Assembly (NCBI GenBank): GCA_964606885.1
Contig: CAZSHB010000005.1
Location: 1 to 59,822, forward strand
DNA length: 59,822 bases
Direction: 5' to 3'
Source of the DNA: an uncultured Pseudomonadota bacterium
GTDB taxonomy: Bacteria > Babelota > Babeliae > Babelales > CAIQNR01
Shown: positions 46,664-58,001 of the stretch, piece after piece
How positions within the stretch are numbered: the stretch's first letter is position 1
Layout of the letters: each line of letters begins with the position of its first letter
The notes under the pieces: model-generated
What the model was told of the DNA's origin: nothing
What the model saw: the letters and a program-made list of their open reading frames with translations, nothing else
The model's database searches: none
Position numbers and translations under genes: made by a program

Positions 46664-46847
46664 GATGTATCAAGAAGAAGCCATAAAAGTTATGTTTAAA
46701 GCTTATAGAGACGTCTTTTTATCTTTCTCTTTATTTCATTGCCCCACTATTGATACCATTTCAAATAGGAAATATATACTAGTAAATTAAGATGAAGATA
46801 TTTTTAGCTTGGTTAACGACAATAATATTTTTAAAGGAAGAAAAGTC

Positions 46848-48809
46848 ATGATGTTTAAAATATGTATGTTTCTTATATTACTAGGTTGTGCAACAACACA
46901 AGCTGCCAGTCAAACATTTCAAGAGTTAGTAGAACAATCACAAATTTTTGAAACGTCCACGCCGTTTCCTACCATAAACAATCGTATTGCAACTATTGCT
47001 GGTAATAATCCAGTACTGCAAAATCTTATTGCGCAACAAGCACAAAACGTACGTGTGATTATGCATCCAAAAGTATTAACGCTTATGGACGACTTTCTTG
47101 CCTATAAAAAAACAAAGGGAACTCCTACTGAACAAGCACTCTACAAAGATATGACACTTAACCAATTTGTAGATCGACTCTTAATAAAACGCCCTCTCAT
47201 GTTTATGACAGAACATGATCAGTATCTCTTACGTAATGGCAAAGAAGGCTATGAAGGTTTTACGCATATTGGCACTGCTTTAGAACAAAAGCCGTTATTG
47301 CTAATCGACTATCTTTCGTATGACGAAATGCAGATAGCCGCCCTCATAAGTGTATCAACACCAACCTATTTTATTAACAATGGCTCTCGTACCAATAAAA
47401 GTGTTATAGGAGCTCCTGGCACCTACCAACCAACAGGCATCTACACTGGTCTTGTTGGTGCTCGCTTTGAAAAACCGAATCTTATGGAATGGCAGCATAT
47501 GCTTATTACATCTGAACAAAATACACGCGATAATGGGTATGGAAAAGATTGCAAGCAGAACAAGCTGTTAGCATTGTGGCAGACTTTTTACGGTGAAGAA
47601 TTTCCTGATTTTCATCAAGTAGATACTCTTTATAACGCTGGCGATCATACCATGTATCACAAGATAGATAGTACAACCTATCTTAATAACTCCGTATATA
47701 AAAAACGGTTAGAAATGGTTATTCTTCCATTTCTAATTGATGCACACGTTCGTGGTAAAAAAGCCCTTAAAAAAGTGTACTGCCATATTGTTGGACTTGG
47801 TCTTGGCGTATGGCAAAAAAGTCCGTATCAAGCACAGCTGATGGTAGAAGTGTACGCAGACTTACTAACACAATATGATTTTTCTTATATAGCAGATATT
47901 GATTTTAGTTGGTTCCCTCAAGATATACAAACGTGCGGTACAACAGCGCATGGACAGCTCTTAACAGCAGGAAACAACCGTATTACGATACACTTTTCTC
48001 AACGTAACCCTGCCGACAAACTAGTAGGTGCAGATAGCGATAAACTGTTAGTTGCTCAATATGCATGGGATGGCAATGCGTATCCTGGTAACGAATACTG
48101 GAAAAAGCAGCTCACTGCTTCTGGCGACCCTGCAGCTGCCTGTTGTTCAACCATTGCAGAGTTACAAAACCCTTTGATTAACAAAAGCGTATCTTCACAA
48201 AGTCTCTTTATTGCTCAACCTACCGTGCATACACCAAAACAACACCACACAGCTACATCTGCACCAGCTGCCGTTGCAATAGCAGCAATCACACCATCTG
48301 TACAACCAACAGCTTCTGGCACTCAACAAGTAGTAGCTTCTCCTGCACATCCAATGTTTACACCTCTTACAGCATATAGAAATAACCACATGCAAAATGT
48401 TGCTATTCCAGCACCAACTACTCATAGACTTAATTTTTCTATGCAGACTCCAACCTATAGAACAGAAGAAGCAAATCTTCATTTAGACAGATCTGCACAA
48501 CAGAAAATTGGGAATTATATAACTAGTTTACAAGTAGCTGACTATGCATATCTTATTGCACTAGCCCATATGAAAAAAGTAACCCCAGAATATATCGTTG
48601 GCCGCTACTATCAAGCTCATGGCACTATGCTCGATGCTACAATTCCTATTAGCACAGTATTAGCTTGGTATCTCAACATGTATTCTGATACGTTACAAAC
48701 ATCTGCAGCAACCATAAAGTTAGAAAACAATGTCCATAATAGCACGCAATCAGGTCTAGCAACAAAAGCAATGCAAGCTTTAAGCAACTGGTGGTATGAA
48801 CAACCATAA
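46848..48809 (+). CDS. Large hypothetical secreted protein: ~440-aa globular region, then Thr/Ala/Pro/Gln-rich linker and a C-terminal helical region
   Basis: AAAGGAAG RBS before ATG 46848. Signal MMFKICMFLILLGCATTQAAS. Conserved-looking blocks VYCHIVGLGLGVWQ and LVAQYAWDGNAYPGNEYW. Possibly a DUF4804-type (macro-like) family, from memory only. Confidence 0.6.
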   Translation: MMFKICMFLILLGCATTQAASQTFQELVEQSQIFETSTPFPTINNRIATIAGNNPVLQNLIAQQAQNVRVIMHPKVLTLMDDFLAYKKTKGTPTEQALYKDMTLNQFVDRLLIKRPLMFMTEHDQYLLRNGKEGYEGFTHIGTALEQKPLLLIDYLSYDEMQIAALISVSTPTYFINNGSRTNKSVIGAPGTYQPTGIYTGLVGARFEKPNLMEWQHMLITSEQNTRDNGYGKDCKQNKLLALWQTFYGEEFPDFHQVDTLYNAGDHTMYHKIDSTTYLNNSVYKKRLEMVILPFLIDAHVRGKKALKKVYCHIVGLGLGVWQKSPYQAQLMVEVYADLLTQYDFSYIADIDFSWFPQDIQTCGTTAHGQLLTAGNNRITIHFSQRNPADKLVGADSDKLLVAQYAWDGNAYPGNEYWKKQLTASGDPAAACCSTIAELQNPLINKSVSSQSLFIAQPTVHTPKQHHTATSAPAAVAIAAITPSVQPTASGTQQVVASPAHPMFTPLTAYRNNHMQNVAIPAPTTHRLNFSMQTPTYRTEEANLHLDRSAQQKIGNYITSLQVADYAYLIALAHMKKVTPEYIVGRYYQAHGTMLDATIPISTVLAWYLNMYSDTLQTSAATIKLENNVHNSTQSGLATKAMQALSNWWYEQP

Positions 48810-48943: not shown

Positions 48944-49393
48944 TTAGCGCTGACTATTACCAGCATTATGTAACTCATACGGAACATGGCAAAGACCTAA
49001 GATAGCCAACGCATTTTGATCATGCCCTAGTAATGCACCTCTTATACGCGGTATTTTCACCTGTAAGTTTTCTTTAATCTGTGCATCCTCACACAGTATT
49101 GCAGTTCTTGTTTTAACTGCTTCATCTACAAGCGCCAAAAGAGACGCAAGAGACATTCTACTATCTTTTTTAACCACACCTAAGCACGTATGGGTAAACA
49201 AACTTTCATCTCCAAGCTTACTTTTAAACTTTTTAGCAAGTGCAGCATTTGGCAACATAGGAGGAACATACGCATCCAAAAGTTCTTGTGCCGACACAAC
49301 CGGCAACGCATTCACGTTGTCTATGCCCGCAGCGCCAAGAGTTAAACCCCATACCAACAAAACGCCACTGCTTACGATATACTTCATAGTCAT
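48944..49393 (-). CDS. Hypothetical secreted protein
   Basis: 149 aa. Signal-like MTMKYIVSSGVLLVWGLTLGAAG. No family recognised. Confidence 0.55.
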   Translation of the reverse strand: MTMKYIVSSGVLLVWGLTLGAAGIDNVNALPVVSAQELLDAYVPPMLPNAALAKKFKSKLGDESLFTHTCLGVVKKDSRMSLASLLALVDEAVKTRTAILCEDAQIKENLQVKIPRIRGALLGHDQNALAILGLCHVPYELHNAGNSQR

Positions 49394-49463: not shown

Positions 49464-49907
49464 TCAGAAGCTAGCAGCTAAAACTCTCAATATTTCCTGA
49501 TGAGCCCGTATATCTTTAATAACTTGTGATACATGTTGATCATTGCCAAGCAACAACATATCGAACATTATTTTTTCCAGTTCTTCATTGTATCCTCGTG
49601 CAGTTGGGGTTATTATTCCCCAGGCCCATGCAGGTCGTTCGGCTACTGGTGTCTTTACAATATCCACAGCAATTTCTTGTACTTTTGTGTATACCTCTTC
49701 TAACGTAACCGTTCTCTCTCCAAAACCTATAAGAATATATGCTTGCGGAAACGGCCCTCCACGAGGGTCATTATAAGAATCTATTTTTTCTGTTATTGCG
49801 CCCCTTGAAGACATCTGTACCTTAACCTTACCCGTATTAGCATCAACAAGACTTGCATAACAAGGCGCCACACAGAGACTCATCAATAACAACAATTTTA
49901 GTTTCAT
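49464..49907 (-). CDS. Hypothetical secreted protein
   Basis: 147 aa. Signal MKLKLLLLMSLCVAPCYAS. No family recognised. Confidence 0.55.
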   Translation of the reverse strand: MKLKLLLLMSLCVAPCYASLVDANTGKVKVQMSSRGAITEKIDSYNDPRGGPFPQAYILIGFGERTVTLEEVYTKVQEIAVDIVKTPVAERPAWAWGIITPTARGYNEELEKIMFDMLLLGNDQHVSQVIKDIRAHQEILRVLAASF

Positions 49908-49987: not shown

Positions 49988-50608
49988 CTAGAACGTAAAG
50001 CCGATACCAGCGCCAAGATCCACACCTGCAACCTTAGTAGCAAAACCTATATAGGTAGGCGTAGAGGCTTGAGCTTGGAAGGTCACTGCTGAATACGCAA
50101 CAAACAAATCAATAACAAAATTATCTACAGGATGAAAAAATACGCCAAAGGTACCGTAGCCACCAAAAGAACTTTCTTTTTGTTCCGCAGGTACATACGT
50201 AGAGTTATTAGCAATCTTCATAAAATAATAACGGGGTGCTGCTGCCAGATAGATATCAATGTTATGGTGCACAGAACAGAACCACTTTGCACCAAGCGTA
50301 ACAGGCACCACTTTAATCGTTGTACGTTGATTGCCATTTTCAGAATAACCATGAGCAAACAGATAGTTCACTTGCCCGAACAACGTCACCGGAGGAAACC
50401 TTTTTGGTACAGCTTCAGAGACATGATTAAACACCAGACCATATTGCTGCCACGCCTTACCATAGATTGTTTTTACAATATGACTGGTAGGCAAAAAAGC
50501 ACTTACCGTACCTTCAACTGCAACATCCGCATATGCTGTTTGTATACACAAGACAAACGCCATTATAGCTATTTTGTTTTTGATCATACTTCTATACAAG
50601 TAACGCAT
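49988..50608 (-). CDS. Small outer-membrane beta-barrel protein (paralogue of 53130-53723)
   Basis: ATG 50608 has a GGGAG RBS. Signal ...IKNKIAIMAFVLCIQTAYA. Alternating-pattern strands. C-terminus GAGIGFTF. Confidence 0.65.
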   Translation of the reverse strand: MRYLYRSMIKNKIAIMAFVLCIQTAYADVAVEGTVSAFLPTSHIVKTIYGKAWQQYGLVFNHVSEAVPKRFPPVTLFGQVNYLFAHGYSENGNQRTTIKVVPVTLGAKWFCSVHHNIDIYLAAAPRYYFMKIANNSTYVPAEQKESSFGGYGTFGVFFHPVDNFVIDLFVAYSAVTFQAQASTPTYIGFATKVAGVDLGAGIGFTF

Positions 50609-50816
50609 ATTGACTCCCAAGCAATAATACCGACCATAAAAGATGGTTATAATAAAGAAAACCCGTTTGCTACAAGAAAAAACCTCTCACCAACTCATAT
50701 GGGTAACCAGCAAAAGTCCACCCTCTATCCTTTTTTACCAATAGATGCTATAATGGCTATTATCAAACATCTTCACATTTTACATTTTCATATTCATTAC
50801 AACAGGAGGGATTGCC

Positions 50817-51581: not shown

Positions 51582-51600
51582 CTTCTACTTTTATGTATAC

Positions 51601-51632
51601 AAAAAGCCCCGATGTTAAAGTCGGGGTTTTTT
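51601..51632. terminator. Bidirectional rho-independent terminator
   Basis: AAAAAGCCCCGA-TGTTAAAG-TCGGGGTTTTTT, between convergent genes. Confidence 0.8.
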
Positions 51633-51649
51633 GTATATATACTTCTTGC

Positions 51650-53113
51650 TTAAGAACCGGACTGAATGCCTATCAACACAATTGGGGTAGTTGCTGATCC
51701 AAACCCACTAACTGTATAGTCTACTTGTTCATCAGGTGACTGGTTGTGATCTTGATAGGTCATTTGTGTACCGGGGACTGTTGCTAGAAGTGTAGTTAAG
51801 CGCTGAATCTGATAAGAAGAAACAGAAGCGTTTATTGGCGACCACCAGGACAGTTGGTTAAAGAATTCTCCGTAATTAGCAAATCTATTAAGAAGCGTTG
51901 TGCTCGTGCTCAGTGGTCCCAGAGATGTGCCACTATACACAGCAGAAAATCCATTCACAACGGGAGTATTATAACCATTTATCCACGTCATATAGATACT
52001 GCCACCACTTATAGGCATATACGTCACACATCCCAAACCCCCTGCTGACGCTCCTGTTGTAAGATAATTAGGAATTGATTGTTTGGGAACAATAATCGTT
52101 CCATCTCGAGCAACTATGCAGTAATGATACTTCGCATCAATGCCCATCCACGTCAGAAAGTACGTACTATCTACAGGATTAAAAGCACCAGTAATAAACA
52201 TACTCAATGAAGGATCAATGGTACTAGTTGCAAATGGTGTTGCCGTTACTACCGGGGTACCAGTTGCATCATATATTACAAAATAACAACCACCATTAAT
52301 GGTTGTCCATGCCATAAGATACTGATTATTATTGTTATAAATATTGGGAACAGTGAGAGAGTAAACAGTATCTCCTAGATCCGGAGTGAAAGGAACAGTT
52401 ACTAAACCTATCCCTGCATCAAAAGTTCCATTTGCATTATAGACTGCAAAAACAATGGTTTCTGATGAAGTTTGCCATGATATGAGATACTGATTTGCAG
52501 TACTATTATAACAAATAGAAGAAGTATACGTATCTGAAGCTATGGTACTCCCTGGAATAACAGTAGTACTGCTTACTGTCCCATCGGCATTAAGAATGAC
52601 AAAACAGACTTGTCCATCTCCATTATTAGAAGTAATACCATATTGATTAGTCGTACTATTATAGCAACAGACAGGTGCGCTAAACGGATTAGCCGTTAAA
52701 GTAAGCGCCACTGTTGGTCCAGATACTAGAGCGCCCGTTTGATCCACAATAAAAAAGTACATGCTATAATCTCCCTCAGCTCCTAAAAACATGATCAGAA
52801 ACTGATTATTTTGTGTGTTATAACAAGATGAGATAGCTGAAGAAGCAATGCTAATTGCACCACCATACTCAAGCAAAAGAGTGGGCAATGCATACGGCGT
52901 TCCATTAGGGTTAAAAAGCGTAGAATATAATCCCTCAGGCGTAACCCATGCAGCAAGAATCTTGTTTGTTTGCGTGTTATAGGCAGTAGTTATTGATGAC
53001 CAAAAACCACCTGTTGAACCACTATCAACGGCTAAAGTAGGATTCAACACTGCTTGTGCGCTAGCACCAGCTAACAACCATAAACATAGTACATACACAC
53101 GAACAACATTCAT
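51650..53113 (-). CDS. Secreted protein with seven ~45-aa repeats (beta-propeller-like) and a C-terminal FN3-like domain shared with 53741-56242
   Basis: AAGGAGAG RBS. Signal MNVVRVYVLCLWLLAGASAQA. Repeats carry (C)YN(S/T)xxNQ(Y/F)L(I/M)xW ... F(V/I)(I/V)...(D/N)GT (e.g. CYNTQNNQFLIMF, CCYNSTTNQYGITS, ICYNSTANQYLISW, IYNNNNQYLMAW). The last 81 aa align by eye with the C-terminus of the glycine-rich protein (YQDHN motif). Confidence 0.75.
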   Translation of the reverse strand: MNVVRVYVLCLWLLAGASAQAVLNPTLAVDSGSTGGFWSSITTAYNTQTNKILAAWVTPEGLYSTLFNPNGTPYALPTLLLEYGGAISIASSAISSCYNTQNNQFLIMFLGAEGDYSMYFFIVDQTGALVSGPTVALTLTANPFSAPVCCYNSTTNQYGITSNNGDGQVCFVILNADGTVSSTTVIPGSTIASDTYTSSICYNSTANQYLISWQTSSETIVFAVYNANGTFDAGIGLVTVPFTPDLGDTVYSLTVPNIYNNNNQYLMAWTTINGGCYFVIYDATGTPVVTATPFATSTIDPSLSMFITGAFNPVDSTYFLTWMGIDAKYHYCIVARDGTIIVPKQSIPNYLTTGASAGGLGCVTYMPISGGSIYMTWINGYNTPVVNGFSAVYSGTSLGPLSTSTTLLNRFANYGEFFNQLSWWSPINASVSSYQIQRLTTLLATVPGTQMTYQDHNQSPDEQVDYTVSGFGSATTPIVLIGIQSGS

Positions 53114-53129: not shown

Positions 53130-53723
53130 CTAGAACGCATACCCAACACTTGCACCAAATGCAAAACCGCCTATCTGTGTGCCGCCATTACTGTAGACGT
53201 TAAGCATTGTTGGACGTATCGTTTTCTTTTCGTATGAATATTCTCCAAAAACACCCAACAGGAAATGTTCTTTGATGTGCATGTTAAAGCCCATATTCAT
53301 AAAGAACCCAACACCACCGCCATTAATAGTCGGGTCGATATACGGTGAATTATTGTGTTGATGGAAATAAAAGAAGCGTGGACCAAACGCAACAAAGTAA
53401 TAATAACAATCCCAAAATTCAAAGATTGCTTTTAAACCAATATCAATTGGCACTGCAGTGAATGTTGTTGTTTCACCTGTATTTAATGCACTGCCCCATG
53501 CTTTTCGCACACCAAGACTGCCGTACACCGCAAGATATTTATACACCGGAACGGATCCACTGCCTTGCAGTTCAAATCCACCTTTGTGATAAATTGCATG
53601 CATCGGTGATGTAGCAAAAAAGAAGTAACTTGGTTTTAGTTCCAACCACGGTGTTAGATCCGATGCATGTTGCGTTAATGAGCACAACAGTACAGAAGAA
53701 AGTAAGGTAATTTTTTTATACAT
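53130..53723 (-). CDS. Small outer-membrane beta-barrel protein
   Basis: ATG 53723 has an AAGGA RBS and gives the signal MYKKITLLSSVLLCSLTQHA. An alternative ATG at 53744 overlaps the upstream stop as ATGA. Aromatic-rich alternating strands. C-terminus GASVGYAF. Confidence 0.7.
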   Translation of the reverse strand: MYKKITLLSSVLLCSLTQHASDLTPWLELKPSYFFFATSPMHAIYHKGGFELQGSGSVPVYKYLAVYGSLGVRKAWGSALNTGETTTFTAVPIDIGLKAIFEFWDCYYYFVAFGPRFFYFHQHNNSPYIDPTINGGGVGFFMNMGFNMHIKEHFLLGVFGEYSYEKKTIRPTMLNVYSNGGTQIGGFAFGASVGYAF

Positions 53724-53740
53724 ACACCTATCCTTTATAT

Positions 53741-56242
53741 TCATGGAACAGTAACTGTAGCTGATGTACTCATATTACCATTAGCATCACGTGCAATTAA
53801 TGCATACAAGAACGATACTCCAAAGGGACGATTATGATCTTGGTATAAAGAAGCAGTAGCAGGCAATGTTGCAATCTCTTGTCCATCTCGATACAACAAA
53901 TACGCTGCTGTTTGTGATGATGGGCTAAGTGTCCATAACAACTGATTATACAATTCATACGCCAACCCAAAATTATTTTTCTTTTGCTGCCCTTGTAAGT
54001 TTGATGGTGGCTCTATAAAACCAGCAAAATTCAATTCCACACGCGTAGGGCTTCCAAGTGGTAGATACGAAAGCGTATAATTGGGAGTTGCTCCCGTAAA
54101 AGTCACAGAATCAAACGTGCCAGTAATACTAGAAGAAGTAAGAAGCGTATACGTACCTGCTGGAGTATCTGAATCAATAGCAAGTTCTAAAACACCTGCC
54201 AACGATGCAGCTCCTGTAACGTCAACTAAGGATGCACCACTTACATCAATCGTGCTATGCACAAGAGCACCTAATGCGCCTGGAGATGCTGCAAAAAGAG
54301 TTAAGCTACCAAGCGTAAGTGTTTCTCCCGTATCTGGAGATATCGTTCCAGAATTTACAGTAACAGCCCCTGTTAAAGTTCCACTGCCACTTAACGTACC
54401 TCGTTGTGTACCAGAAGCAAGATCTCTACAAACACGAATTTCTGCTGTATTAATCTCTCCATTTACTTTAAAGTTTGCATTATTAATCAAAACAGTACCC
54501 GTATAATCAGTTGTTCCATTATAAATAACAGTTCCATTTCCTCTGACAAATACATTTGTTCCTACTCCACCAAAACTAGTATCATCAACAAAGGCAACAC
54601 CACTTCCCAGCGTCAAAATATCATTGACACCATCTGCTCTGAAATTAAGCCTAGAATTTGATCGCAAGAAAATACTATATCCCAATTCTGATCCATCAAA
54701 GCCATCCTCTGCTCCAGAAGCACCTGTACCACCAATTCCTTTTTGTACGGTAGTGTTTACGGTATTAAAAACAGTTGGAATACCAGAGAACGCTTGTATG
54801 GTAAACTCTAGACCAGTATCTACAAAAATAGCACCGCCTAGACCACTACCACCACCACCGCCTCCTCCACCAGAACCTGCGCCAACTGAATTTGCACCCG
54901 CTCCACCAGAACCGCCACCAAGATTACCTGTATCAGAACCGCCATCAGCAACACCTCCATCAGTTGGTCCACCACCGCCTCCTCCACCGCCGCTTGCAGA
55001 ATTGCCACCAGTTGCAAATGTTGTACCAGATGAGACAACACCACCGCATCCTCCACCGCCCCCAACACCGCCTGATCCACCTTGCACAGAATACCCTGAA
55101 TCATAAAAACCTAGACCAGCGCCACCGCCTCCACCACCTGCGGAACCACCATTACCAGCCCTGCCATCAATATTAACCGTTGTACCATTAACAACGACCC
55201 CTCCACCACCGCCACCGCCTCCATCACCGCCCCAACCTCCAGAAGGCGTTCCTCCACCTGGAGGCGTAGAACCTTCCGGTTGCTGACCAGTATACCCATT
55301 ACTTCCACCACCACCTCCACCAGATTGTGCAAGACCAGCACCACCACCTGCACCACCTGCTCTTATTCCTCCCGACAAACCTCCTCCACCAGAACCAGCT
55401 GTTAAGATAAGTCCATACCCATTTCCATCAGACCCAGGATTATCATCATCTCCACCATGACCTAAATTTGTAGGTGTGCCTGCAGTAGCTCGTGATCCTA
55501 AACCGCCACCACCTCCGCCGCCGCCTCCAGCTGGATCTCCAAATGGAATAGTAACATTACCACCATTACCACCAAAGCCACCGCCACCTGCACCGCCAGT
55601 GCTCCCTGTTGTAGTAACCGAACCACCATTACCACCAAAGCCTCCTCCTCCGCCGCCGCCCTCATTACCCGTAGAGGCACCACCCATATAACTTCCTCCA
55701 TTACCCCCAACAGCAGAACAATTGTTGATTGAAACGTTGATTAACGTGATTGTAGGATCTGAACCATTTAAAAAAGATTGCGGTGCATAGATAGCACCCC
55801 CTGCACCCATTCCACCACCGCCGCCAGAAATACCATCTCCTCCTTCACCACCCTGTGCAGTAAAATTTTGAAAGATCATATTTTGAATGGTCACATTACC
55901 CATAGGAATAAAAAATCCAGGATACGTATTTTGTCCGTCAATCGTAACAGTCGGGATAGAACCAGCATTACCAATAGTGATAGTTACAGGATGTGTTGAA
56001 TTATTAATGATCGGCAAAATACCATTAAGTTGAATCGTCATAGGAAAATCAAAAACAATCGCATAATCATCAGCTGCACTATTATTTAACTGATCATTCA
56101 TGGTATTTAAGCAATACCGTAAATCACCCACGTCACCAACACCACCGGCATTATCATCTGAACTTAGTGAGACATGGAGCGTTGTTAAAGCATGCAAAGA
56201 CGATGAGGCAAAAAGAAGCACTACATAGATATATTTAAACAT
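53741..56242 (-). CDS. Large secreted glycine-rich beta-helix protein (Pmp/autotransporter-passenger-like) with no barrel domain of its own
   Basis: 833 aa. Signal MFKYIYVVLLFASSSLHA. N-terminal GDLRYCLNTMN...IVFDF...ITI.G (CSLREA-like start of parallel beta-helix adhesins). GGAI motifs (GAGGAIYA, LGGAIFV). A ~340-aa tract dominated by GGxGG/GGNGG (aa ~130-470). Passenger-like GTLSGSGTLTGAVTVNSGTISP...LTLGSLTL...GVLELAI...GTYTLLTSSSITGTFDSV. C-terminal 89-aa FN3-like domain. Confidence 0.85.
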   Translation of the reverse strand: MFKYIYVVLLFASSSLHALTTLHVSLSSDDNAGGVGDVGDLRYCLNTMNDQLNNSAADDYAIVFDFPMTIQLNGILPIINNSTHPVTITIGNAGSIPTVTIDGQNTYPGFFIPMGNVTIQNMIFQNFTAQGGEGGDGISGGGGGMGAGGAIYAPQSFLNGSDPTITLINVSINNCSAVGGNGGSYMGGASTGNEGGGGGGGFGGNGGSVTTTGSTGGAGGGGFGGNGGNVTIPFGDPAGGGGGGGGGLGSRATAGTPTNLGHGGDDDNPGSDGNGYGLILTAGSGGGGLSGGIRAGGAGGGAGLAQSGGGGGGSNGYTGQQPEGSTPPGGGTPSGGWGGDGGGGGGGGVVVNGTTVNIDGRAGNGGSAGGGGGGAGLGFYDSGYSVQGGSGGVGGGGGCGGVVSSGTTFATGGNSASGGGGGGGGPTDGGVADGGSDTGNLGGGSGGAGANSVGAGSGGGGGGGGSGLGGAIFVDTGLEFTIQAFSGIPTVFNTVNTTVQKGIGGTGASGAEDGFDGSELGYSIFLRSNSRLNFRADGVNDILTLGSGVAFVDDTSFGGVGTNVFVRGNGTVIYNGTTDYTGTVLINNANFKVNGEINTAEIRVCRDLASGTQRGTLSGSGTLTGAVTVNSGTISPDTGETLTLGSLTLFAASPGALGALVHSTIDVSGASLVDVTGAASLAGVLELAIDSDTPAGTYTLLTSSSITGTFDSVTFTGATPNYTLSYLPLGSPTRVELNFAGFIEPPSNLQGQQKKNNFGLAYELYNQLLWTLSPSSQTAAYLLYRDGQEIATLPATASLYQDHNRPFGVSFLYALIARDANGNMSTSATVTVP

Positions 56243-56315: not shown

Positions 56316-57173
56316 TCAAGTCTTAAAGCTGGGTAGCTCTGAAAATAGATATTTCTGAAGAATAAAATAGGGCCTCATAGCAAACGCAATAGTTGCATAG
56401 CGCACGTTATCAGATTGCATGACAACATGCGGCGTTGGATAGATAGAAAATTCCGCTAAAAGCGTTCCTGGGATAAGCAGCATAGAATGAGGAAACATTC
56501 TTGTAGGCACAGAAAAATCATCTACCGTAAATACAGATTTGTATGCAGAAAGCAACAGTGATTGATTATCAGTACTATCAAGCAACAAAGAAAACGCAGT
56601 GCCATCATAATGCGGTTTTATGGGAGTATATGTAGACAAATATTTTACCACTTTAAATAAAATGGGTACCTGCTCATACGCTGAAGAAAACATTGCTCCT
56701 CTGCCTAGCTCATCTGCCGCTTTTTGAAACACCTCTCCATAGGGTTGTTGTATTGCTCTACAACTTTCAAGAAAATTCACAAGCGCAGACAGCTGAATAA
56801 GCTCTGGATAACGAGCTTTTATAAAATCATGAAAATGAGTTGAATAATAAAAAGATATCTGACTTCTTGCCCGTATTTTTGATTCATCGTAAAAACCAAA
56901 AAAATCTGTTGCATAATAGTTTTTATCTTGTGAGCGAATAAAACGTTCTTTTGCATTATTTACTTTTTGTGCCCACTTTGGGTTTGCTTGCAGAAATGTA
57001 ATTAATACATCAAAGTGCTTATACAAAGCATCAAACGCTTCAGCTTCTTGCAGTCTATCAGCTATTTCTACATAACCAATCTGCGCAAACTGTTCTGCAA
57101 AAGACAACCCCCTACACGGAGTAAAAGAACAGACAAAGGCGATGTAGAGCACTACAATTTTTTTAATCATCAT
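56316..57173 (-). CDS. Secreted protein with a 2OG-Fe(II)-oxygenase-like motif pattern
   Basis: 285 aa. Signal MMIKKIVVLYIAFVCSFTPC. KPHYDGTAFSLLL (HxD), ...MLLIPGTLLAEFS..., PTPHVV (distal His) and RYATIAFAMRP (Arg) occur in the order and spacing of the isopenicillin-N-synthase-like dioxygenase fold. Judged by eye only. Confidence 0.4.
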   Translation of the reverse strand: MMIKKIVVLYIAFVCSFTPCRGLSFAEQFAQIGYVEIADRLQEAEAFDALYKHFDVLITFLQANPKWAQKVNNAKERFIRSQDKNYYATDFFGFYDESKIRARSQISFYYSTHFHDFIKARYPELIQLSALVNFLESCRAIQQPYGEVFQKAADELGRGAMFSSAYEQVPILFKVVKYLSTYTPIKPHYDGTAFSLLLDSTDNQSLLLSAYKSVFTVDDFSVPTRMFPHSMLLIPGTLLAEFSIYPTPHVVMQSDNVRYATIAFAMRPYFILQKYLFSELPSFKT

Positions 57174-57398: not shown

Positions 57399-58001
57399 TT
57401 ATTTGCTTAGATAATTCTCAATAAAATTAACCGTATCTTCAGAACCACTTTCTTTCGCATCATCAAGCGCCGTATGTCCCATGTAATTCACAACAGTAAC
57501 ATCAACTCCTGCATTGAGCAGGGCTTTAACTATAGCAATATTACCTTGAAGGACAGCTGCATGAAGCGCTGTACTCCCCATACAATTTATAGCATTCACA
57601 TCAGCACCTGCTCGTAATAAAGCTTCAACTATTGAAACATGACCCTTAGCAACAGCACGCATAAGCGCTGTTGTACTGTCAGTATCTATTTTATTGACAT
57701 GTGCACCCGCAGCTAACAAAGCATGTACCGTTTCAGTACACCCTGCCTCTGCTGCAGCCATAAGAGCAGTTTCAAAAATAGGCCAATCTGCAGCATTCAC
57801 GTCAGTACCTGAATGTAAAAGTTTTTTAAGAGCATGAGTATCACACGCTCTTGCAAGATCTAGGAAATGATTATAACGAACTTGTTCTGGTGTTTCTTGC
57901 ATCTCTTCAATAACAATTCCACCTTCTAATGTAACATTAGCCTGAGCTACAAAATCGATAAAAAGTACAAACACAAACAAACTTTTTTTGAACATATTCA
58001 T
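57399..58001 (-). CDS. Secreted ankyrin-repeat protein
   Basis: 200 aa. Signal MNMFKKSLFVFVLFIDFVAQA. At least four ANK repeats (TALMAAAEAGCTETVHALLAAGAHVN, TALMRAVAKGHVSIVEALLRAGADVN, TALHAAVLQGNIAIVKALLNAGVDV, TALDDAKESG). Confidence 0.9.
   Translation of the reverse strand: MNMFKKSLFVFVLFIDFVAQANVTLEGGIVIEEMQETPEQVRYNHFLDLARACDTHALKKLLHSGTDVNAADWPIFETALMAAAEAGCTETVHALLAAGAHVNKIDTDSTTALMRAVAKGHVSIVEALLRAGADVNAINCMGSTALHAAVLQGNIAIVKALLNAGVDVTVVNYMGHTALDDAKESGSEDTVNFIENYLSK

Follow-up and report, generated by a model that had tools for sequence, protein, structure and literature searches.

How might a large beta-helical protein be held at the outer membrane when the only barrel beside it is encoded by a gene of its own? 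The question is raised by two adjacent minus-strand genes in a 59,822-nucleotide stretch of DNA (the window) from an uncultured bacterium of the GTDB lineage Babelota (assembly GCA_964606885.1, contig CAZSHB010000005.1). The original prediction, made from the sequence alone, described an autotransporter-like passenger lacking a barrel, followed by a small barrel gene, and offered two readings: a split, two-polypeptide analogue of an autotransporter, or an anchoring barrel by which the C-terminal domain of the passenger is captured. Both open reading frames are present as predicted, at 53741-56242 (833 aa) and 53130-53744 (204 aa from the upstream ATG), both on the minus strand. In the reading we prefer, to which we give an even chance of being correct, the C-terminal tail of the passenger and the small barrel belong together as a cognate pair, and through them the passenger is anchored at the cell surface.

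The passenger

The passenger begins with a predicted Sec-type signal peptide (residues 1-19, 56186-56242, minus strand), read from the translation as MFKYIYVVLLFASSSLHA followed by L, which is kept across orthologues and forms a helix at residues 2-12 in the AlphaFold2 model. It is followed by an N-terminal beta-helix region (residues 20-187, 55682-56185, minus strand) that holds a GDLRYCLNTMN motif and the first GGAI motif, is modelled as strands with pLDDT of about 70-90, and is among the best-conserved stretches of the protein, with many invariant columns and a match to the 'nterm' HMM at E 4e-92. The next roughly 270 residues (188-457, 54872-55681, minus strand) are a glycine-rich tract whose glycine positions are invariant family-wide in an alignment of 36 sequences; AlphaFold2 returned no usable structure for this tract (pLDDT 20-35). 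With the same alignment, residues 458-741 (54020-54871, minus strand) are modelled confidently (pLDDT >90 over about 460-740) as a right-handed beta-helix of the autotransporter-passenger type, matching the Ssp autotransporter passenger (8e7f) over 200 columns at an rmsd of 3.6 (Foldseek).

The C-terminal domain (residues 742-833, 53744-54019, minus strand; PPSNLQG...NQLxW...YRDG...YQDHNR...) has an FN3 fold and is the proposed barrel-docking module. Residues 745-833 are modelled as a beta-sandwich with many FN3 matches in Foldseek (TM(target) 0.6-0.73), the profile of this tail matches the NagJ FN3 domain (E 1.4e-3), and PF00041 was matched in the homologue P0248. By its models, then, the 833-aa protein is an autotransporter-passenger-like beta-helix that ends in an FN3 domain and not in a translocator, and the predicted soluble beta-sandwich in place of 12 strands is borne out. 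The GGAI motifs (GAGGAIYAP and GLGGAIFVD) and the G-x-G-T-L strand repeats (GTLSGSGTLTG...VNSGTISPD) are likewise present in the translation. The suggested CSLREA-like and Pmp-like resemblance found no backing: the passenger has zero matches to Pfam or NCBIfam models at E<=0.1, including the PF03797/TIGR01414 beta-domain and the TPS domain. Orthologues are 65-72% identical over the 833 aa, and many carry a variable Pro-rich linker ahead of the FN3 domain.

The small barrel

The passenger passes into the barrel gene through the sequence ccATGAatataAAGGAtaggtgtATG. At the ATGA (53741-53744, minus strand), the TGA of the passenger (53743-53741) overlaps an in-frame upstream ATG of the barrel reading frame (53744-53742). 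A second ATG lies at 53723, 17 nt past the passenger stop, with AAGGA 7 nt before it in a Shine-Dalgarno-like AAGGATAGG (53727-53735, minus strand). Both starts had been predicted, and it is the second (MYKK...) that is conserved in 35 aligned barrel orthologues, which shortens the real barrel to about 197 aa and places its start beyond the ATGA overlap. This precursor (53130-53723, minus strand) has a predicted signal peptide (residues 1-20), a mature length of about 177 aa and the C-terminus ...GYAF, and is the proposed cognate partner and anchor of the FN3-tailed protein.

As anticipated, the product is a Phe-terminated barrel, modelled by AlphaFold2 with 8 strands at pLDDT 88. It has the features of small outer membrane proteins, namely 8 antiparallel transmembrane strands, periplasmic termini and a C-terminal aromatic beta-signal, and its best structural matches in Foldseek are the OmpA transmembrane domain, OmpW, OmpX, Ail and NspA (E 1e-7 to 3e-6 for OmpA, OmpW and OmpX; TM-score up to 0.76, to OmpW), with autotransporter translocators ranking just 46th and 49th. 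Profile searches gave no match in Pfam or NCBIfam at E<=0.1, none to POTRA, Omp85 or PorP/SprF, and none in the PDB. As to the small-barrel families PF13505 and PF01389, two barrel orthologues carry a precomputed PF13505 mark, and a chlamydial-type relative scores E 0.003, below the cut-off. The barrel has 147 orthologues at 54-70% identity. Its conservation scores 0.67 in the strands, 0.57 in the long extracellular loops and 0.36 in the periplasmic turns of 2-3 residues. An 8-strand barrel resembling OmpA and OmpW is not the analogue of a 12-strand translocator and argues against a literal split autotransporter pore.

Exchange of C-termini in the passenger family

Over 80 species-level loci from Babeliales, Chlamydiota, Legionella/Coxiellaceae and Verrucomicrobiota, the beta-helix part of the passenger keeps 56-68% identity, and the C-terminus is the sole part of the family that varies. 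A fused PF03797 autotransporter beta-domain is present in 20 of the 80 loci, L025 among the carriers, and also in P0249 and P0246; in Chlamydiota-labelled homologues it lies within the passenger reading frame (E 2e-36), and these fusions share the N-terminal region, the glycine-rich tract and the beta-helix with the window passenger. P0252 and P0251 have a fused OmpA-like 8-strand barrel (PF01389), P0252 and P0248 a VesB-like Ig / choice-of-anchor D domain with a TM/Arg tag, and other variants have no barrel, ending in a TM tag alone or in a Lys-rich tail. The PF03797, PF01389 and choice-of-anchor D plus TM/Arg tag C-termini are all known devices for membrane or surface attachment. The passenger tree is star-like (39 of 65 branches unsupported); tail types cluster in it, and it does not give the order in which tails were switched. 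Named database entries for the family that were looked up are all 'hypothetical protein'.

Passenger and barrel fused in one reading frame had been put forward as a sign of a Rosetta-stone relationship. Such fused homologues do exist, and their barrels show no detectable homology to the barrel studied here (hhalign probability <1% against both the PF03797 and the PF01389 barrels), which points to functional replacement and not to a strict Rosetta stone. A strict Rosetta stone or gene fission was accordingly rejected: the FN3-pair barrel has no detectable homology to the OmpA-like barrel of P0252, and neither it nor the small barrel of a second pair, found in Legionellales, is detectably homologous to the autotransporter beta-domain of the family or to the other.

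Tail type and neighbouring barrel

When next-gene counts are split by tail, tail type and barrel family co-vary. The FN3 tail occurs at 24 of the 80 species loci and the FN3-pair barrel is the next gene at 18 of these, against 0 of 20 autotransporter-type loci and 0 of 35 with other tails (0/55 in total; Fisher p 5e-13), counts that are phylogenetically non-independent and may go back to no more than two or three founding events, with gene transfer accounting for the spread. The expectation that the barrel usually adjoins a passenger-like gene thus agrees with these loci and with the second pair, in which a Cys-rich tail at 18 Legionellales loci is followed directly by a PF13505 barrel in all 18, with an ATGA overlap at the junction in 16. 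The two tails are mutually unrelated, as are the two barrels (hhalign probability 0.9-1.6%). A third tail, at one Verrucomicrobiae locus, is followed by another PF13505 barrel that starts 21 nt later. In public annotation the Legionella barrel is named 'opacity protein and related surface antigens'. The recurrence of the arrangement with unrelated parts in relatives of Legionella suggests that proteins of this kind are held or exported at the outer membrane in a way not yet described.

Among the observations that count against the anchor are the six FN3-type loci without an adjacent barrel, and the barrel homologues that lie away from passengers (window 49988-50620, L028 and L042). Both would be expected if the barrel were a general small outer membrane protein, porin or structural, whose gene is simply expressed and transferred together with that of the passenger, and which makes no direct contact with the passenger. 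That these genomes commonly carry small OMP_b-brl genes, the Legionella one being annotated as an opacity protein, fits the same explanation. We nevertheless think it improbable, since two or three independent and unrelated tail/barrel combinations occupy one position with conserved overlaps or short gaps, and since no passenger with a barrel of its own or with another tail has this barrel beside it.

The same loci bear on a split type V-like secretion, in which the small barrel, during its assembly by BAM, would be needed for passage of the passenger across the outer membrane. The nascent barrel, or a BamA hybrid, would be engaged by the tail or linker, two polypeptides doing the work of the fused beta-domain. 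Fused PF03797 and a downstream small barrel are mutually exclusive, the tight translational coupling (ATGA in two unrelated pairs) would yield 1:1 co-synthesis, the FN3 domain of many orthologues is preceded by the variable Pro-rich linker, and the Legionella barrel weakly matches autotransporter models (TIGR01414 at 16.2 bits, cut-off 16; PF03797 at E 2.5e-4), well below its PF13505 match. Against this, 8-stranded barrels of the OmpA/OmpW type have no polypeptide-sized lumen, there is no covalent link by which to thread the passenger, no homology was found between either small barrel and the beta-domain of the family, and the TM-tag or Lys-rich-tail variants show that the passenger needs no barrel in cis or adjacent. 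We regard split secretion as unlikely. Because the barrel has 8 strands, lacks detectable homology to the fused barrels and adjoins passengers with one type of tail, an anchor capturing the C-terminal domain is the better supported of the two readings first offered; the adjacency speaks for it and the strand number speaks against a two-polypeptide autotransporter.

It also counts against the anchor that the FN3-like domain is a generic repeat, its profile finding 5091 proteins, in which it stands at any position and in many of which it has up to 28 internal copies. On this ground the reading of the tail as a C-terminal signal dedicated to sorting was rejected.

Gene neighbourhood

Upstream of the passenger lies a conserved gene (56316-57173, minus strand) for a 285-aa protein with an N-terminal hydrophobic, signal-like segment and invariant H188, D190, H249 and R258 (HxD...H...R), 60% identical to the product of a 290-aa gene at the matching position in locus L005. 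Among loci with enough upstream sequence, a gene of this type precedes the passenger in 25/25 of the FN3 type, 12/12 of the autotransporter type and 9/32 others, the last group taking in all three loci with a Lys-rich tail but no Legionellales-type locus. A 31-sequence profile of the protein matched no PDB or Pfam family. A 2OG-Fe(II) oxygenase is a tentative idea for this protein, with the invariant HxD...H...R pattern as its sole support; the profile met no oxygenase in PDB or Pfam. In four barrel orthologues on long contigs the order 290-aa gene, ~840-aa gene and barrel is kept in all four, with a gap of 11-17 nt, and passenger and barrel have consecutive locus tags (WC707_06215/06220 and JO129_01425/01430). 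In the sequence searches, many matches to the barrel and to the passenger also lie on contigs of identical length.

Downstream, a gene for a 487-aa secreted repeat protein (51650-53113, minus strand), the third or fourth of the transcription unit, begins 17 nt past the barrel stop behind GGAGAG. Its repeats are propeller-like and its FN3-like tail belongs to the same subfamily as the tail of the passenger (BLASTP E 1e-6, HMM 3e-9). A hairpin resembling an intrinsic terminator (51607-51626, minus strand), within a bidirectional hairpin at 51593-51640, closes the unit after this gene; no terminator-like site was found at the other gene boundaries of the unit, the remaining minus-strand matches lying inside genes. 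The public sequencing runs that contain this sequence are DNA metagenomes, with no transcript runs among them. Further downstream is a paralogous small barrel (49988-50620, minus strand; 24% identity, BLASTP E 7e-12, barrel HMM 1e-17) without a passenger gene directly upstream. At L007 a non-orthologous propeller with the same FN3 tail adjoins the barrel, and a similar second barrel copy flanks the FN3-tailed propeller at L007 and L033, so that two FN3-tailed proteins and two barrel paralogues occur together both here and at L007.

Proposed anchor

We propose that the passenger is exported by Sec and that its C-terminus serves, within the family, as an interchangeable outer membrane attachment module. 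In this genome the module would be bipartite, consisting of the FN3 tail and of an 8-stranded OmpA/OmpW-like barrel that is translated together with the passenger from a gene of its own. The barrel would be inserted in a BAM-dependent manner, its unusually conserved extracellular loops would then bind the FN3 tail, and with its tail bound the passenger would stay at the surface of the cell. The second FN3-tailed protein of the operon (487 aa) would probably be held in the same way. The barrel would not itself be the translocation pore. Homologues with a beta-domain presumably use type V secretion, so a passenger without its own barrel would need another route across the outer membrane, possibly type II secretion, reported to be core in the Dependentiae phylum. 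What the analysis shows directly is the two folds, the conserved and coupled neighbourhood, the matching of tail type to barrel family and the existence of homologues with a fused barrel; physical binding between tail and barrel, the surface location and this route are what we infer.

A beta-helix protein that stays in the periplasm on the barrel, as an envelope scaffold or outer membrane tether replacing Lpp, Pal, OmpA or OmpM, would use the same two genes. Ten Dependentiae genomes yielded no homologue of any of these four known tethers (10.1101/2021.05.31.446380), and dark material has been seen in the periplasm of Chromulinavorax (PMC6561590). The identity among passenger orthologues is also unusual for an exposed adhesin, and the barrel resembles the OmpA membrane domain without the OmpA periplasmic domain. 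However, homologues with a type Va beta-domain or a choice-of-anchor/TM-tag end indicate surface display, and it is the outer loops of the barrel that are long and conserved, its periplasmic turns being short and poorly conserved. The cassette is moreover present in Legionella, which has Pal and OmpA-type proteins. A periplasmic complex is therefore a doubtful reading, with a low probability in our estimate.

We tentatively suggest a broader reading, to which we give less than an even chance: a previously unrecognised modular two-gene display system in which the 12-strand beta-domain was given up for a beta-sandwich and an adjacent 8-strand barrel, at least two unrelated pairs were recruited, and gene transfer carried the cassette between bacteria that are associated with protists and bear the labels of at least four phyla. 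The 56-68% identity over Dependentiae, Chlamydiota, Legionellales and Verrucomicrobiota, in a family whose entries are named 'hypothetical protein', suggests that the passenger has a common role under strong constraint in the association with protist hosts. Nature has in effect run a swap experiment on one highly conserved passenger, in which a beta-domain, a tail with a small barrel (in two unrelated forms), an OmpA-like fusion and a membrane tag have been exchanged. Whether a beta-helical passenger needs a covalent translocator, or whether a separate barrel and another route suffice, is thus testable, and since the cassette occurs in culturable Legionella species, genetics is feasible. For Dependentiae, in which no known outer membrane tether has been found, the pair is a putative envelope complex that is widely conserved. 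Should the small barrel serve export as well as anchoring, the system would represent a new branch of type V-like secretion.

Comparison with known systems

Type Va autotransporters share the Sec signal and beta-helical passenger with this system, and passenger homologues carry PF03797; they differ in having the 12-strand beta-domain in one polypeptide, whereas here the passenger ends in FN3 and the separate, unrelated barrel has 8 strands. The chlamydial Pmp proteins have Chlam_PMP repeats and a Pmp middle domain (PF02415, PF07548) together with an autotransporter barrel, whereas the passenger has no Pfam match of any kind (E<=0.1) and just two GGAI tetrapeptides. Two-partner secretion (type Vb) likewise combines a beta-helical exoprotein and an outer membrane barrel from two genes of one operon, but TpsB is a 16-strand Omp85 protein of about 550 aa with POTRA domains, and a TPS domain lies at the N-terminus of TpsA. 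In the pair described here the mature barrel has about 177 aa and 8 strands, the searches met no TPS domain, and the passenger gene comes first.

The OmpA membrane domain, OmpW, OmpX/Ail and NspA have their fold and C-terminal aromatic residue in common with the barrel, which is set apart by the lack of a sequence-family match, by its conserved outer loops and by its pairing with an FN3-tailed gene. In the Hop adhesins of Helicobacter ('type Vf') an 8-stranded barrel holds a surface domain, and GlyGly-CTERM/rhombosortase substrates of type II secretion such as VesB are folded proteins retained at the surface by a C-terminal module; in these the anchor is either a lipid or a section of the anchored polypeptide itself, whereas here it would be a separate barrel protein.

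T9SS is not known in Dependentiae, Chlamydiota or Legionellales, and neither the tail nor the barrel described here matches the T9SS CTD or PorP/SprF models (Pfam, NCBIfam, E<=0.1). The T9SS type B system of Bacteroidota resembles the proposed pair in its large surface protein, small beta-sandwich end and adjacent cognate small barrel. There the CTD cargo has a neighbouring PorP/SprF-like barrel as its anchor (PMC9143113), the barrel holding its cargo non-covalently and separate cargoes having barrel paralogues of their own.

Description

Translation of the minus strand places in succession a 285-aa gene (56316-57173), the 833-aa passenger gene (53741-56242), a small barrel ORF (53130-53744) and a 487-aa gene (51650-53113). 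The original prediction had described a passenger followed immediately by a separate barrel gene, and this is borne out by the ORF translations and by an ATGA (53741-53744, minus strand) in which the passenger TGA overlaps a barrel-frame ATG. A second barrel ATG at 53723 lies 17 nt past the passenger stop, with AAGGA 7 nt upstream, and because this start (MYKK...) is the conserved N-terminus in 35 orthologues, the barrel precursor should be about 197 aa. The 487-aa gene starts 17 nt beyond the barrel stop, with GGAGAG ahead, and is predicted to be co-transcribed after the barrel; among the gene boundaries, only the one just 3' of it carries a terminator-like hairpin (51607-51626, minus strand). 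No Pfam or NCBIfam model matched the passenger, barrel or 487-aa proteins at E<=0.1 except PF19079 for the last (a sub-threshold Pfam match, E 0.064, far under its cut-off), and no Pfam model matched the 285-aa protein at that threshold.

The barrel has 147 relatives, of which the 120 listed share 54-70% identity, and are nearly all about 196 aa; those with names belong to Babeliales or Dependentiae. The best 120 of 522 passenger matches are 58-67% identical across the last 354 residues, mostly 824-856 aa long with the remainder shorter, and include no fusion-length protein. Gly positions of the passenger tract are invariant in the aligned orthologues. The long contigs read for the four barrel orthologues looked up all carry a 290-aa gene, an approximately 840-aa gene and then the barrel (11-17 nt gap); passenger and barrel locus tags are consecutive in two named MAGs, and many matches to both proteins sit on equally long contigs. 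In some long-read assemblies (L001, L003, L004) the passenger gene is split across several frames, as is the 290-aa gene of L004, and a near-identical short-read contig, L002, has the passenger gene intact; these breaks are probably assembly errors in Gly-codon runs and not pseudogenes.

AlphaFold2 models were built from alignments of 35 (barrel) and 36 (passenger) sequences. The barrel is a signal helix followed by eight long antiparallel strands (pLDDT 88), and its Foldseek neighbours are the OmpA membrane domain, OmpW (TM-score 0.76), OmpX, Ail, NspA and OprF, the autotransporter translocators NalP and AIDA-I ranking only 46 and 49. The passenger comprises a beta-helical N-terminal region (residues 20-187), an unmodelled Gly-rich tract (188-457, pLDDT 20-35), a confident right-handed beta-helix (458-741, pLDDT >90) and a beta-sandwich (742-833). 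By Foldseek, the helix resembles the Ssp autotransporter passenger of Serratia and the sandwich dozens of FN3 domains; a sequence profile also touches the NagJ FN3.

A helix plus FN3 profile was scored against 1.84 billion representatives. The FN3-like domain is a generic repeat, present anywhere in a protein and as many as 28 times, and therefore not a dedicated sorting tag. Pfam and NCBIfam scans found other C-termini on proteins with the same helix. P0249 (1166 aa) and P0246 share the N-terminus, Gly tract and helix of the passenger and then continue into a PF03797 autotransporter beta-domain. The passenger and genuine type Va passengers are homologous. P0248 ends in FN3 plus a membrane tag, and P0244 has a TIG domain. 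In P0252 and P0251 a single ORF joins the helix to a choice-of-anchor D/VesB-like Ig domain, a GlyGly-CTERM-like GGGGS-hydrophobic-RRR tag, a second signal-like hydrophobic stretch and a PF01389 OmpA-like 8-strand barrel; these two separate representatives are either true fusions or two genes whose stop was lost.

The helix profile was then applied to one genome per species, giving 80 loci (56-68% identity) that were classified with home-made HMMs. Their labels include Babeliales/Dependentiae, Parachlamydiales, Rhabdochlamydia, Waddliaceae, Coxiellaceae, other Gammaproteobacteria and Verrucomicrobiota, with four named Legionella strain assemblies (L. rowbothamii, L. quateirensis, L. worsleiensis, L. 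maioricensis). A fused PF03797 beta-domain is present in 20 loci (E 2e-36 in L025, where it was confirmed), and in none is the next gene a small barrel. Among 24 loci with the FN3 tail, 18 have this barrel family as the next gene, vs 0/20 autotransporter-type and 0/35 others (Fisher p 5e-13, for loci that are not phylogenetically independent). All 18 loci with the Legionellales tail, about 95 aa and Cys-rich (VNGSP..VVCCGRP..), are followed by a 234-247-aa PF13505 barrel, whose start overlaps the passenger stop by ATGA in 16, by 8 nt in one and by GTGA in one. The other 15 loci (membrane tags, Ser-rich ends, PKD repeats, truncated) include one small barrel, in the Verrucomicrobiae locus L082, where a third tail type precedes another PF13505 barrel by 21 nt. 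Three loci (L010, L012, L032), a supported clade (97), have a Lys/Arg-rich helical tail of about 90 aa (..KKKFRKVLAGY..KKLKKFK..) and no small barrel next door. Public entries looked up call the passenger and the Babeliaceae barrel 'hypothetical protein' and the Legionella barrels 'outer membrane protein / opacity protein and related surface antigens'.

The passenger C-terminus is thus a swappable module, every recognisable alternative being a membrane or surface attachment device. By hhalign, no relationship was detected between the FN3 and Legionellales tails (probability 1.3%) or between the two barrel families (0.9-1.6%), nor homology of either barrel to the passenger family's own beta-domain. 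Two unrelated small tail domains are each tightly coupled to one barrel family (18/24; 18/18), and it is mainly from this co-variation that we take tail and barrel to act together. Mere co-location, to which the six FN3-type loci lacking the barrel next door would be congenial, is accordingly improbable.

Gene adjacency and the relation to type Va passengers would suit a split type V-like export role for the barrel; with eight strands it is no polypeptide pore by any known mechanism, and we consider this role unlikely. Under the usual outer-membrane topology rule, the periplasmic turns have 2-3 residues and are poorly conserved (0.36), and the outer loops are long and conserved (0.57 vs 0.67 for strands). 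Ordinary surface loops show the opposite pattern. Loop conservation and barrel fold therefore favour surface anchoring, in which the FN3 tail would be held on the barrel's outer face; a conserved YQDHNR-type motif common to the operon's two FN3-tailed proteins is a candidate contact. Here and in L007/L033, the neighbourhood also contains another FN3-tailed protein and another barrel paralogue. The passenger may instead stay in the periplasm, bound to the barrel, as a scaffold or tether, a reading of interest as none of the known tethers turned up in Dependentiae (10.1101/2021.05.31.446380); given the short, variable turns we hold it to be rather implausible. For surface anchoring, the passenger's route across the outer membrane may be guessed to be type II secretion, reported as core in TM6/Dependentiae (PMC4776705).

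At the predicted outer loops or close to them, most barrel orthologues conserve four Cys (NTCEKT, FNFCERF, VDC, ICP); all are replaced in the window barrel, save one nearby, differently placed Cys (FWDCYY). As the Legionellales tail and barrel are Cys-rich as well, sequence suggests that disulfide chemistry may matter for the complex.

The tree of the N-terminal region plus helix is star-like, and the window's partner is a Babeliales locus (support 88). Legionellales-type loci form a single supported clade (97) that also contains membrane-tag variants. Tail types cluster (24 changes vs 42.6 shuffled), with several switches still needed. Similarity is nearly uniform from phylum to phylum, consistent with gene transfer between bacteria sharing protist hosts, together with strong constraint. 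Some MAGs may be mislabelled; cross-phylum presence is firm because Legionella isolates carry the family. Legionella passengers in Legionellales-type loci (L013-L071) are 61-65% identical (best segment) to the Babeliales-like helix, far above the phylum-distance prediction, which implies transfer among amoeba-associated bacteria.

The 290-aa gene precedes every FN3-, autotransporter- and Lys-rich-type passenger whose locus extends far enough upstream, and none of the Legionellales type. Its window counterpart, the exported-looking 285-aa protein, has invariant H188, D190, H249 and R258, an HxD...H...R pattern resembling 2OG-Fe(II) oxygenases; a profile of 31 sequences matches nothing in PDB or Pfam, and only the motif suggests an oxygenase. 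By analogy with the Aah and TibC genes upstream of AIDA-I and TibA, it could modify the passenger. The secreted 487-aa protein has about seven YNxxxNQYLxxW repeats, looks propeller-like and ends in a tail of the same FN3 subfamily as the passenger's; in L007/L033 two barrel paralogues flank a lactonase-like propeller that is not its orthologue and has this tail too. Further along are a paralogous small barrel (49988-50620, minus strand; 24% identity), followed by two small signal-peptide proteins (147 aa, 49464-49907; 149 aa, 48944-49393; minus strand) that match no family, and a 666-aa protein (46809-48809, plus strand) with a very strong match to the MavL-like ADP-ribosylhydrolase family of Legionella effectors (PF16062, E 3e-121), another family common to this Babeliales-like genome and Legionella. 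A signal-peptide ankyrin-repeat protein, read from translation (57399-58001, minus strand), adjoins the cassette; such proteins are typical of host-associated bacteria.

To our knowledge, an autotransporter-type passenger with a separate 8-strand barrel has no description, and full-text search did not find the phrase 'split autotransporter'. Because the defining domains of types Va and Vb and of Pmps were tested for and are lacking, the pair falls outside these classes. Although neither protein matches any T9SS model, the nearest working analogue is type B CTD cargo of the T9SS, which its adjacent PorP/SprF-like barrel anchors (PMC9143113).
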